A stretch of 33,989 nucleotides of DNA from a virus (Duplodnaviria > Caudoviricetes): IMG/VR virus record IMGVR_UViG_3300038608_000037, positions 1 to 33,989 of that record; one strand, given 5' to 3'. The notes under the pieces were generated by a model that was given only the letters and a program-made list of their open reading frames with translations, ran no database searches and was not told where the DNA came from. The translations under genes and the position numbers were made by a program. Shown here in pieces: positions 465-12,966 of the stretch. Each line of letters starts with the position of its first letter. Positions within the stretch are counted from its first letter, which is position 1.

Positions 465-1704
465 TTAAACTGCTAAAGTGGCACGAAGATTTAGTACCCA
501 TAGATCATTAGTGATTCTTGGTACTTCTGCAAATTTATATCCTACTGAAGCATTAAGCGCTAATGGACCATCATATATAGGTGGTCTATATATAAATGAT
601 GCACTATAACCATCTTGTTCTATACATGCATATGCTTCCATACCCACACAGAATATGTTGTAAACATTATTTCCTAGTGAAGAAGCACTTGGAGATACAG
701 ACCCAATAGATGATATTAGGAATCTAAGATTACCAATTGCTCCCCACTCAGAACGCAATGCATTCATAGGTGCAGGATATTGGTTCTTTTGTGTAAATCC
801 AGCAACGTTATCCAAGTTTCCAGTTAACTGTGTAGAACATAATGCAAAATATGCATCACGAACTGGCGCAGTACCAAACTTATCTTCACCCTCAATGTTA
901 TCCATGATTGTGTAAGCATTATTGTTTAATAATGCACGCACAATAGTGTCAACATCTGAACGTGTTATTTCAGTCGGATTATCGCCGTTAACACCACCAG
1001 TACAGTTAATAAATGATGCTGTTGATGCCAACATATCACGCGTTAACTGATCTTCTGTTTGACGAAGCGAAACACCTAAACGTGCCGCACACTCATTTAA
1101 TCGTTCTGTTACTTTTATGACCTATTACTAGGCGGGAAAACCTCTTCGGATCTTCCTCTCTATGTCTCCATAGAGTTCAGACTATCGCATCACCTTACGG
1201 CGCCCTTGGGTTTAGTCGTTCAGGGTGACAAAATATATATTTAATAAATAAAATTGGTGAATAATATTTTTATCTTCCCCCTTGTCACGCTCGCCTTATA
1301 CGTTAGCGCTTCCAAGTCAATTACCAAAGGTTTTAATCCCGCATTAAACTTTACGGGATCCTGATTTTGTAACGTCACTTGTTCATTTATTTGGACGTAG
1401 GTCAATTTTACAAAATCAGTCATACGGCACCCTAATTTATACCGTAAAATGAGATTTTCGCATCTATGTCTACCGCGGTTAGATTTTGAGGCGGAGGGGT
1501 AACACCACTATTTCCAAGTGGAACCATGGCTGTATTTAACGGATTATACCTACGCATACGAAGAGTAGTACCACCATTACGGGGCATATTCTTTTTCATC
1601 GCCGGTATTTTATGGATCATATTTGGTACTGGTACCGAGAGTAATTTATAGCTGAACGATTGCTGCACTGGAGCAGGAAGCGTCGATGTAGTCGTAATAG
1701 ACAT
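465..1704 (-). CDS. Major capsid protein, N4-gp56-like, 3 exons: 1704-1441, 1402-1353, 1101-465 (316 aa spliced)
   Basis: Exons join in frame (264+50+637=951 nt): ...DIDAKISFYG|TYVQINEQVTLQNQDPV|LNECAARLGVSLRQTEDQLTRDML... Motifs MPRNGGTTLRMRRYNPL, SEWGAIGNLRF and DGPLALNASVGYKF resemble N4-gp56-type capsids. AAGGAG RBS. Confidence 0.88.
1102..1352 (-). ncRNA. Group I self-splicing intron (251 nt, no homing endonuclease ORF)
   Basis: P1 AUCCCGU|A with UGCGGGAU (U-G at splice site). P10 UUUAAU with 3' exon AUUAAA. P3 CCUUUGG/CCCAAGG, P5 GCGCU/AGCGU, P7 ACGACUA/UAGUCU, P8 CGCC-GUAA-GGUG, P9 CUCUAUG-GAGA-CAUAGAG. Terminal G at 1102. Removal restores the capsid frame. Confidence 0.92.
1403..1440 (-). 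other. 38-nt core-less group-I-like mini-intron in the capsid gene
   Basis: Follows a U and ends in G. P1 UACGGU|A with UGCCGUA (U-G at the junction). UAGG can pair with 3' exon CCUA. Contains in-frame stops, and precise removal restores the frame. Confidence 0.7.
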
Positions 1705-1861: not shown

Positions 1862-2119
1862 TTATAATTTATTGGGCAATATAATTTCTTTATAAGGAAG
1901 CCACCATCTAATTATGTAAGCACTTTCTCTATTTTCTTTACCATATCTTGGCGATTCATCCTTAAATACGCAGTCAATTAAAAAATATTCTTCAAGTTCA
2001 TTTCTATTACTAAAACTTTCTTCCACAACAAATCTTGCTGACCACAAAATTCCATCTCTATATATTAGAACTCGTTCATTAATTGATGGTTTTTCTTTAT
2101 AAATATCAATCCATTTCAT
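1862..2119 (-). CDS. DUF551-like small phage protein
   Basis: MKWIDIYKEKP...VLI...IRWW.P pattern typical of DUF551. Confidence 0.65.
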   Translation of the reverse strand: MKWIDIYKEKPSINERVLIYRDGILWSARFVVEESFSNRNELEEYFLIDCVFKDESPRYGKENRESAYIIRWWLPYKEIILPNKL

Positions 2120-2121
2120 AT

Positions 2122-2757
2122 TTATTTTTCACAATGTTCAGAGCACCGCATCTCTGGTTTGCAATTCTTTTCGCACGACAAACAATATTCATTTTTAATC
2201 CAATCACACATTGCTGTCTTACACTTCAAGAAACATTCAGAGTTTTCTCGCTTGCTACGTTCAGGCTGATTATTTCCCAAATGTTCAGAGCACCGTATCT
2301 TAGTTATTGCAATATATTCTGTTAACTCATCAAGTAAATCATCATAATCATTGCGGTATTGACCACAATCTATATTTTCTTCTATAACAACCTGTCTGAG
2401 ATGTTCTAACTTTTCTATTTTTTTACAACATTCAAAGTTTTCTTGTTTTCTACATTCAGACTGATTGTTTTCTATACAAAAAGGAATAAATCGTTTCATT
2501 GTTAGACAATCGCAATCTTTATTATGAAGTTCGAATTTATCGGTTCTTTTTTTTCTCTCAATAAAATGGTTTTCATATACAAAATCCAATAAATCATCGA
2601 AGCAGGATCTTACGCAATAGTTATGACTTAAATATTGTCTATCGCAATTAAATAGATGTGGACTTGTATGATCAACATAACAACAAGAATTATTATCTTC
2701 GGAATTATAAAATGCGCACTCAAAATGGGCTTTACATGCCTTACAAATAATCATCAT
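2122..2757 (-). CDS. Cys-rich hypothetical protein with internal repeats resembling group I intron core sequence
   Basis: 211-aa ORF coupled to its neighbours. Repeats NNQ[SP]E..K.EN.EC and RCSEH. Confidence 0.6.
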   Translation of the reverse strand: MMIICKACKAHFECAFYNSEDNNSCCYVDHTSPHLFNCDRQYLSHNYCVRSCFDDLLDFVYENHFIERKKRTDKFELHNKDCDCLTMKRFIPFCIENNQSECRKQENFECCKKIEKLEHLRQVVIEENIDCGQYRNDYDDLLDELTEYIAITKIRCSEHLGNNQPERSKRENSECFLKCKTAMCDWIKNEYCLSCEKNCKPEMRCSEHCEK

Positions 2758-3005
2758 TATAATTTATTAGGTAATATAATTTCTTTATAAGGGAGCGGTA
2801 TCTCTGATAATTCCATGTAAAACAATATTTGATCGTTTGTAATATCATATTTCTGAATATTATCAATTATTATATCTGGATAATCACTATCCCATTTATA
2901 ATTACCTTTATATTGAGAAATTCCTATTCCATCACCCCATTCGCAATAAATAAGATAATAATGATATTTTTTAGGTTCTTTTTCTTTTATAGATATCCAT
3001 CTCAT
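2757..3005 (-). CDS. DUF551-like small phage protein
   Basis: MRWISIKEKEP start. C-terminal LPYKEIILPNKL is identical to that of ORF 1862-2119. Confidence 0.65.
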   Translation of the reverse strand: MRWISIKEKEPKKYHYYLIYCEWGDGIGISQYKGNYKWDSDYPDIIIDNIQKYDITNDQILFYMELSEIPLPYKEIILPNKL

Positions 3006-3543: not shown

Positions 3544-3792
3544 TTATTCCTTTGGAGTATCTGGTAAATAAGACCAATATTCTATTTTATCTAAATATAA
3601 ACCCGAGCCACAATCTGAATATGGCGTTTCTATGAAATTAGAATTAGTACCAATAAATTCCCATTTTCTTGTATTACCACATGTATATCGAGCAAATTGC
3701 ATTGTATAGCGATATGCTACTTCGCCTTTTCCGGAAACTAAAACCCAATCACAACTTTCTGGCAATTTATCTTTTATTGATATCCATTTCAT
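3544..3792 (-). CDS. DUF551-like small phage protein
   Basis: MKWISIKDKLP...VLV...IEYWSYLPDTP. Confidence 0.75.
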   Translation of the reverse strand: MKWISIKDKLPESCDWVLVSGKGEVAYRYTMQFARYTCGNTRKWEFIGTNSNFIETPYSDCGSGLYLDKIEYWSYLPDTPKE

Positions 3793-4098
3793 TTATTCCT
3801 CAAATTTTTTACATATATCTGGCGTATAAGGTAAATAAGACCAGTATTCTATATCTTCTAAATGCAACCAATTGCCAATACTTTTTGCATCTAAAACTGA
3901 AGTTTGGTCATCGGCAACAAAACAAAATTTATTATCATTTCTTTCGATGAAAGCTATTTGAATAACATAATCACCAAGATTACCTTTTCCCGAAACCAAT
4001 ACCGCTCCATCATCAAAATCTGGCATTTGATCATTTACAGATATCCATTTAACGTTATCACATATTCCAATTTTGATATTACCTATTTCTTCTGGCAA
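3793..4098 (-). CDS. DUF551-like small phage protein (paralog of 3544-3792)
   Basis: KWISVNDQMP...VLVSGKG...IEYWSYLPYTP. Confidence 0.7.
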   Translation of the reverse strand: MPEEIGNIKIGICDNVKWISVNDQMPDFDDGAVLVSGKGNLGDYVIQIAFIERNDNKFCFVADDQTSVLDAKSIGNWLHLEDIEYWSYLPYTPDICKKFEE

Positions 4099-12624: not shown

Positions 12625-12669
12625 TCATTGTTTGGTTGGTACTTTATCTTTAACTGAAATCCATTTCAT
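12625..12669 (-). pseudogene. Truncated DUF551-like gene start (MKWISVKDKVPTKQ*)
   Basis: Same N-terminal motif as the other DUF551-like genes, TAATG-coupled, stops after 14 codons. Confidence 0.5.
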
Positions 12670-12878
12670 TACTTGTCCTTATCTATAATTATAACAGGTT
12701 TCCAGCGCATTATTTCTGAACTATAAATATATAATTTATTACATTCAAATATTTCATGCATTTCCATCATACTATCAAATTTAACTATAACATAACCTGG
12801 AAAATCTACTGAAATAGAATCAACCATTACCCACTGATCATGAGCCGGCTTTTGTTCGTTAAAATTAATCCATTTCAT
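12669..12878 (-). CDS. DUF551-like small phage protein
   Basis: MKWINFNEQKP...WVMV...IMRWKP. AGGGG RBS. Confidence 0.65.
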   Translation of the reverse strand: MKWINFNEQKPAHDQWVMVDSISVDFPGYVIVKFDSMMEMHEIFECNKLYIYSSEIMRWKPVIIIDKDK

Positions 12879-12966
12879 AATTTACCCCTATAAAAATCAT
12901 TTATCACATTTACACAGAAATGGCCGCTTTTATTGGCGGCCATCATAATTAAAAAAACAAAAAACA

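Follow-up and report, generated by a model that had tools for sequence, protein, structure and literature searches.

The catalytic core of a group I intron docks a P1 helix that bears a U.G pair, cleaves by means of a guanosine bound in P7 and ligates the exons at a terminal G aligned by P10, as set out in PMC3984707. An intron of this class interrupts the capsid gene of mycobacteriophage LittleE and is described in the available text of PMC3706429 with a LAGLIDADG-like ORF on its opposite strand, as are found in the large introns of relatives of the phage examined here. In the tandem introns of Twort orf142 each intron is described as having its own ribozyme, and the cooperative event reported is exon skipping, not the removal of a core-less intron (PMC10136302). 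Removal of core-less segments is described for laboratory constructs: trans excision-splicing (TES) ribozymes take out an internal segment of 1-28 nt that follows a U and ends in G and ligate its flanks via P1 and P10 (PMC2532722, PMC4094466), and group I spliceozymes remove about 100 nt, likewise from after a U to a G and via P1/P10 (PMC4094466). A search of full texts, mostly of open papers, brought up no natural case in which a group I intron without a core is spliced by a neighbouring one, and the available text of PMC11878797 and PMC3706429 makes no mention of such a case.

The DNA analysed here (the window, 33,989 nucleotides; IMGVR_UViG_3300038608_000037) carries a 38-nt insert and a 251-nt intron in its major capsid gene. 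The latter, termed the partner, is a group I intron of the kind known from phage genes, and the 38-mer, termed the mini-intron, resembles such introns in the U before the 5' splice site, the U.G pair, the guide, P10 and the terminal G, but has no P3-P9 core. With the substrates of TES ribozymes and spliceozymes it has in common a core-less U-to-G segment that P1 and P10 delimit and that is kept at a group I core; those systems were built in the laboratory and take the guide from the ribozyme, whereas the phage arrangement is natural and in cis, and the mini-intron brings its own P1/P10 guide. Unlike in TES, a separate tether helix positions the mini-intron next to the partner P1, and in 4-5-nt inserts at another site the guide is supplied by the exon. 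The short Phialophora PaSSU introns (63-75 nt) also have P1, P10 and a helix that joins the intron's central part to the 3' exon, but they are reported to retain P7 and to self-splice, with no neighbouring ribozyme invoked in the available text of PMC3160393. The phage mini-introns are shorter (28-53 nt), show no putative P7 of the kind found within the 56-81 nt of PaSSU-type introns, and have a partner wherever this could be checked. From comparison of these sequences it is proposed, with a probability of roughly 85%, that the neighbouring group I ribozyme splices out the 38-nt mini-intron.

The capsid gene and its two inserts

The window, a complete phage record of 34 kb, has direct repeats at its termini and also encodes a P22-like portal and a terminase large subunit. 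The interrupted gene lies on the minus strand and is an N4-gp56-family major capsid gene: an uninterrupted homologue (L001, 96% identical) scores 141.6 bits against TIGR04387 (N4-gp56 major capsid; cut-off 60), and a Pfam scan of the two window capsid exon pieces returned no capsid family. The original prediction held that an intact capsid frame requires two removals, and this is borne out: once 1440-1403 (38 nt) and 1352-1102 are taken out, 316 codons without an internal stop are obtained, and the spliced product is collinear with uninterrupted homologues, aligning without gaps over residues 1-315 with up to 96% identity. Exon 1 (1441..1704, codons 1-88) ends in U, with 1446-1441 forming the exon strand of the mini-intron P1. 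Exon 2 (1353..1402) is 50 nt long; its segment 1372-1361 pairs with the tether and 1360-1353 is the exon strand of the partner P1. Exon 3 spans 465..1101; all three exons are on the minus strand. Insertion sites are given below as positions of the capsid CDS, the mini-intron of the window being at 264 and its large intron at 314.

Both inserts are preceded by U and end in G. Within the mini-intron (1403..1440, minus strand; terminal G at 1403), the internal guide GCCGUA at 1423..1428 pairs with 1446-1441 to form P1, with G1428 opposite U1441 at the junction, and the pairing can be extended across the junction; the same guide is used by full-length introns at this site. The three bases GGU at 1429..1431 pair with 1402-1400 as P10. 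A P10 had been predicted in the register UAGG/CCUA; covariation in the family supports a P10, but in the register GGU (1431-1429) with ACC (1402-1400), one base off. The tether strand (1408..1419) starts 3 nt past the guide, in the register of the family, and its anticipated 12-bp complementarity to exon 2 (1419-1408 with 1372-1361) is indeed perfect, a helix of at least 12 bp being reached in 6 of 20,000 shuffles of the insert. In the predicted fold of 1452-1330 the mini-intron P1, the tether and the partner P1 follow in succession (z = -4.6; none of 200 shuffles was equally stable), and this fold contains the hairpin ACGUC/GACGU that had been proposed within exon 2. All 38 nt are assigned to loop, guide, linker, tether and tail, with neither a P3-P9 core nor a P7 G-binding site among them, and a whole-window Rfam scan gave no match at the insert. 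Its features are those of a group I substrate (a P1 with U.G at the 5' splice site, a terminal G and a P10 with the 3' exon), in agreement with the earlier description of an insert made of substrate parts only; since the catalytic core P3-P9 is absent, the insert is not classed as a group I intron.

The partner intron (1102..1352, minus strand; 251 nt) has a P1 with U.G, a guide at 1342-1336 and a terminal G at 1102. P3 (1330-1324 with 1209-1203) was placed from the alignment and P7 (1217-1213 with 1184-1180) from conserved motif columns. A local scan with RF00028 gave E 3.4e-5 and 27.1 bits, against a gathering score of 50, and this match is absent from the whole-window Rfam scan. Alignment with seven related introns revealed two-sided changes in P3, P6, P8 and P9 and a conserved P4; the P7 motif is conserved, with one compensatory allele (L040). 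A motif scan of the window genome for group I cores found only one. The partner has no endonuclease ORF, its longest sense ORF being 3 aa, and a long antisense ORF is common in the partner introns of relatives, with LAGLIDADG matches in four of the five tested. Across relatives, the capsid gene is interrupted at more than 25 sites by group I introns of a single family, many with antisense LAGLIDADG ORFs and some with short unrelated sense-strand ORFs of about 80-130 aa. The window partner has an AT-rich stretch of about 40 nt (1270-1230, minus strand) in the P6 region, which in relatives holds either a short loop or a long insert; the stretch is possibly the scar of a lost endonuclease gene.

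Two further sets of elements were observed in these genomes. Five small ORFs of the window (1862-2119, 2757-3005, 3544-3792, 3793-4098 and 12669-12878) have similar N-termini with a W-I-S/D/N-x-K/N-E/D motif; four of them cluster just upstream of the capsid gene, and a similar ORF lies inside the site-290 intron of L092. In terminase genes, the frame of G004 in L345 is shifted after codon 40, at about 12870-12900, by a 23-nt insert that contains a stop codon and a UUCG hairpin. This is the position of an intein-like insert in G001, and a second copy of the gene start lies about 900 nt upstream; a bypass-like element or a pseudogene is possible. In L340 and L348 (the G001 and G005 terminase genes) there are in-frame insertions, about 1095, 966 and 1248 nt long, whose ends resemble those of inteins.

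The mini-intron family and its partner introns

An insert of 28-38 nt was present at site 264 in 14 of the first 80 capsid loci, every one of which also had a large intron, at 290, 314 or 350. A pattern scan for the insert gave 76 matches, two of them outside capsid genes; a second protein scan added more, and so did a metagenome scan (53 loci), which also gave intron-free alleles. The pooled set comprises 80 distinct mini-introns of 28-53 nt at the codon of site 264, from 160 redundant locus hits. As the pattern defining this set required the guide motif and the terminal G, these two features are tested free of selection only by the protein-guided alignments, in which U and G received a small bonus. 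A looser check yielded 81 distinct short-insert contexts, all following TACGGT and all with the guide, and TACGGT occurs in only 3 of 40 intron-free alleles.

These sequences bear on whether the insert is spliced at all. Were it retained, the capsid would be made in two pieces, the second starting from the ATG at 1423, or read by ribosomal frameshifting or bypass across the insert. In the window alone the split capsid raised by the original prediction is possible, as the exon-2 frame is open across the insert and the in-frame ATG has a purine-rich stretch upstream. At the level of the family that alternative does not hold: an in-frame ATG is present in 26 of 80 mini-introns and the exon-2 frame is open throughout in 23, but 41 have no in-frame ATG, GTG or TTG, 57 have a stop in the exon-2 frame and 79 stop the frame of exon 1. 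The lengths fall into all three phases (31/30/19), with a stop in each of the 19 in-frame inserts. Retention would moreover predict neither the covariation of P10 nor the full introns at site 264 described below, and is considered very unlikely.

All of the data are metagenomic assemblies of uncultured phages, and the insert could in principle result from faulty assembly or be a non-functional relic carried by a defective phage. Logan contigs from three DNA runs cover 1102-1447 with no substitution and no gap, though these runs may be the source of the window itself, which makes the family data the stronger argument against error. The 80 distinct variants keep their pairings through compensatory changes, and the capsid exons of the window are 85-96% identical to intact homologues; such an error or relic is therefore given the lowest probability of the explanations considered here. 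The capsid also occurs on 16 GTDB contigs whose bins belong to a wide range of unrelated taxa, among them Babeliales, Chlamydiae and Bacteroidota; these are most likely mis-binned phage contigs.

A partner was found with 79 of the 80 distinct mini-introns, at site 290 (n = 60), 314 (n = 13), 350 (n = 5) or 312 (n = 1), which lie 26, 50, 86 and 48 nt downstream, respectively; the remaining contig ends at the 314 site. Co-occurrence was counted on 112 distinct alleles from the protein search alone, with a near intron defined as a full intron at most 90 nt downstream and with fragments that do not span residues 85-150 excluded. Twenty-nine alleles had both mini-intron and near intron, none had the mini-intron alone, 18 had the near intron alone and 65 had neither, so that a near intron accompanies 29/29 mini-bearing and 18/83 mini-free alleles, which are not independent of one another. 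Targeted scans recovered ten loci with a site-290 intron and no mini-intron, and a site-350 intron without one in L207; a pattern for a site-314 intron without a mini-intron gave no matches. Nine of the ten mini-free site-290 loci lack the TACGGT codons and are thus not spliced intermediates. As there are partners alone but no mini-intron without a partner, the dependence is one-way, and in every allele of this count the mini-intron occurs only alongside a large intron, as originally expected. Mutual obligacy, in which the mini-intron would shield the cut site of a homing endonuclease, was rejected as a requirement because partners at 290 and 350 occur without it.

Covariation of P10 and the tether

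P10, formed by the three bases 5' of the guide G and the first three of exon 2, is Watson-Crick in all 80 mini-introns, and its third pair tracks the wobble base of Thr89 (G-C in 52, A-U in 11, C-G in 9 and U-A in 8). The tether sequence differs with the partner site and matches in each case the exon stretch just 5' of the P1 of that partner. In 72 of 79 mini-introns the best tether helix lies in one register, which starts 3 nt after the guide and ends 8 nt before the partner 5' splice site, or is one pair longer; among the other seven, two are shifted by one base and five have their best uninterrupted run elsewhere. The mean number of Watson-Crick tether pairs, out of nine, is 7.9 with the own exon, 5.6 with another allele at the same site and 2.6 across sites, and at sites 290 and 314 no permutation out of 5000 came up to the observed value, the five site-350 tethers being uninformative.

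Seven site-314 alleles including the window were compared position by position. All 126 of 126 cells pair, against 37-47% in slid controls, and three tether pairs change on both sides. The P1 pairs of the mini-intron are invariant across these alleles, and covariation consequently lends no support to P1. Relatedness of the alleles inflates the tether tests; nevertheless, on the sequences compared, the switch of the tether between partner sites cannot be explained by shared descent alone. Beyond the tether, the tail is between 1 and 17 nt long; inspection by eye revealed no conserved P9.0-like pairing for the 3' end of the mini-intron, and the aligned mini-introns have no second conserved helix. 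The covariation with the exon looked for in related phages is thus present in both the tether and P10. Together with the one-way co-occurrence, it supports the proposal that the 38-nt insert is a satellite intron of its neighbour. The insert is a genuine element, one of a widespread family whose structure is under selection.

The pairings and the co-occurrence show that the mini-intron depends on the position of its neighbour, but not which molecule catalyses its removal. The catalyst could be a protein or some distant ribozyme working in trans, with the tether organising only the local folding, for example of the partner P1, which a helix stacked on it could stabilise. LAGLIDADG proteins are encoded by many partners, and some members of that family act as maturases. 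The window partner, however, has no ORF, and its core is the only one that the motif scan detected; some partners at 290 and 350 exist without a mini-intron or tether; and the fixed register of 3 nt and 8 nt across three sites fits a docking constraint. Another catalyst is accordingly regarded as unlikely, if less so than retention of the insert, and the neighbouring ribozyme is preferred.

An additional element was found in the P1 loop of site-290 introns (for example L119, L154, L071, L092, L241 and L245), where a module of about 35 nt contains the conserved motif TCTTTGA(A/C)A. In the alleles inspected, the motif precedes a stretch of 10-14 nt complementary to the 3' exon, and this stretch changes along with the exon. 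Of the site-290 introns, 51 of 60 with a mini-intron have the module, as do 2 of 8 without (Fisher p = 0.001, for alleles that are not independent); it is absent from the window partner. As to the TCTTTG motif itself, pairing with codons 83-85 was rejected for want of covariation, no conserved pairing position was found in the capsid region, no matching short insert was found in other genes of five whole genomes, and inspection gave no support for a promoter.

Origin, proposed mechanism and implications

A scan for full introns after the exon end used by the mini-intron returned 35 matches, of which roughly one in three lies in a capsid-like gene. Complete site-264 introns of 217-428 nt were found in five of eight distant capsids examined, the other three not being resolved within the flank, and these introns open with the guide of the mini-intron, followed by a linker and then the core. 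The presence of such introns, with an identical guide, at this site in more distant capsids makes it likely that the mini-intron arose by core deletion and represents the 5' end of a full intron in which the core was replaced by the tether. One locus, L354, has complete group I introns at both 264 (217 nt) and 290 (252 nt), 26 nt apart, and such an arrangement is plausible as the ancestral state of mini-intron plus partner.

Even shorter inserts occur at site 354, where L193, L195 and L203 have 4 nt and L112 and L113 have full introns of 197-199 nt. A scan for these micro-inserts gave 23 matches, 10 of which are capsid loci with seven distinct alleles (six of 4 nt, one of 5 nt); the loci include L251 (=L193), L256 (=L195), L259 (=L203), L247, L248, L250, L255 and L337. 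All follow U, lie beside a site-432 intron and end in G, the last being demanded by the pattern. In seven of seven alleles GGCGGAGT stands in the exon just 5' of the site-432 partner P1; it pairs with the exon end at 354, a U.G forming at the junction (-11 to -13 kcal/mol). The P1 guide, and with it a P10 of 2-3 bp, thus comes from the exon codons adjoining the partner P1. The same motif is present in 5 of 118 uninterrupted alleles and in none of four other site-432 alleles. The seven alleles may be of single origin; their two length phases argue against a single frameshift signal. On sequence grounds they are candidate micro-introns, with a second P1-like helix at the base of the partner P1.

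The micro-inserts also bear on whether the mini-intron could splice itself with the aid of exon sequence, in the manner of the 63-75-nt Phialophora rDNA introns. A 67-nt intron of that kind is reported to splice in vitro, and has P1, P7, P10 and a pairing of its middle with the 3' exon that resembles the tether (PMC3160393). The Phialophora introns nonetheless keep a putative P7, whereas the 28-nt mini-introns consist of loop, guide, linker, tether and a short tail, and the inserts at site 354 have 4-5 nt. Self-splicing would also leave unexplained that 0 of 29 alleles are partnerless and that the tether moves with the partner site. It is judged as improbable as retention of the insert.

Under the preferred reading, the complete intron 50 bases downstream would excise the 38-nt insert from the capsid mRNA. 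The 12-bp helix of tether and exon 2 is predicted to be stacked on the partner P1 and would end where the partner guide enters the core, with the mini-intron P1 three bases from that attachment point, and one ribozyme core would dock the two P1 helices alternately. Two routes appear feasible. In the first, the mini-intron would leave first, with free guanosine initiating while the ribozyme is still covalently attached. In the second, the partner would splice first and stay base-paired to the ligated exons, and its terminal G would then attack the 5' splice site of the mini-intron, as in trans excision-splicing. The second route is slightly favoured because most site-290 partners carry the extra 10-14-nt complement to the 3' exon; the window partner has no P1-loop module, and either route may apply in the window. 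The mini-intron is proposed to have spread by co-conversion with the homing endonuclease of the partner; according to PMC3984707, flanking markers undergo co-conversion during homing. In a capsid tree of 108 rows, from which the insertion region was excluded and whose deep branches have weak support, the mini-intron state needs 23 changes for 30 carriers, a pattern that fits lateral spread.

Viewed across the family, it appears fairly probable that phage group I ribozymes act as natural minimal spliceosomes, in which one core removes itself and a second, non-autonomous intron. The latter would range from guide-plus-tether remnants of 28-53 nt to micro-introns of 4-5 nt whose guide is made of exon codons; tethers would have come to target at least four different partner sites, and a part of the ribozymes would have gained an extended guide with which, once excised themselves, they stay on the mRNA for the second reaction.

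If this is correct, catalyst and substrate of group I splicing would be naturally separated in these capsid genes, a situation otherwise found in the searchable literature only in engineered TES ribozymes and spliceozymes. They would offer a small, testable model of the decay of self-splicing introns to ribozyme-dependent ones. Accounts of how the spliceosome arose often include such decay, in most cases with group II introns in view. The finding would also explain frameshifts in essential phage genes that are annotated as pseudogenes, and would supply evolved design rules (a 3-nt linker, an 8-nt partner P1 and a coaxial tether) for RNA-repair ribozymes. For the phages themselves, the gene concerned is that of the major capsid protein, and loss of the ribozyme would be lethal for as long as the mini-intron persists, which is consistent with none of the 79 evaluable mini-introns being partnerless; a mini-intron could in this way lock a selfish intron in place.
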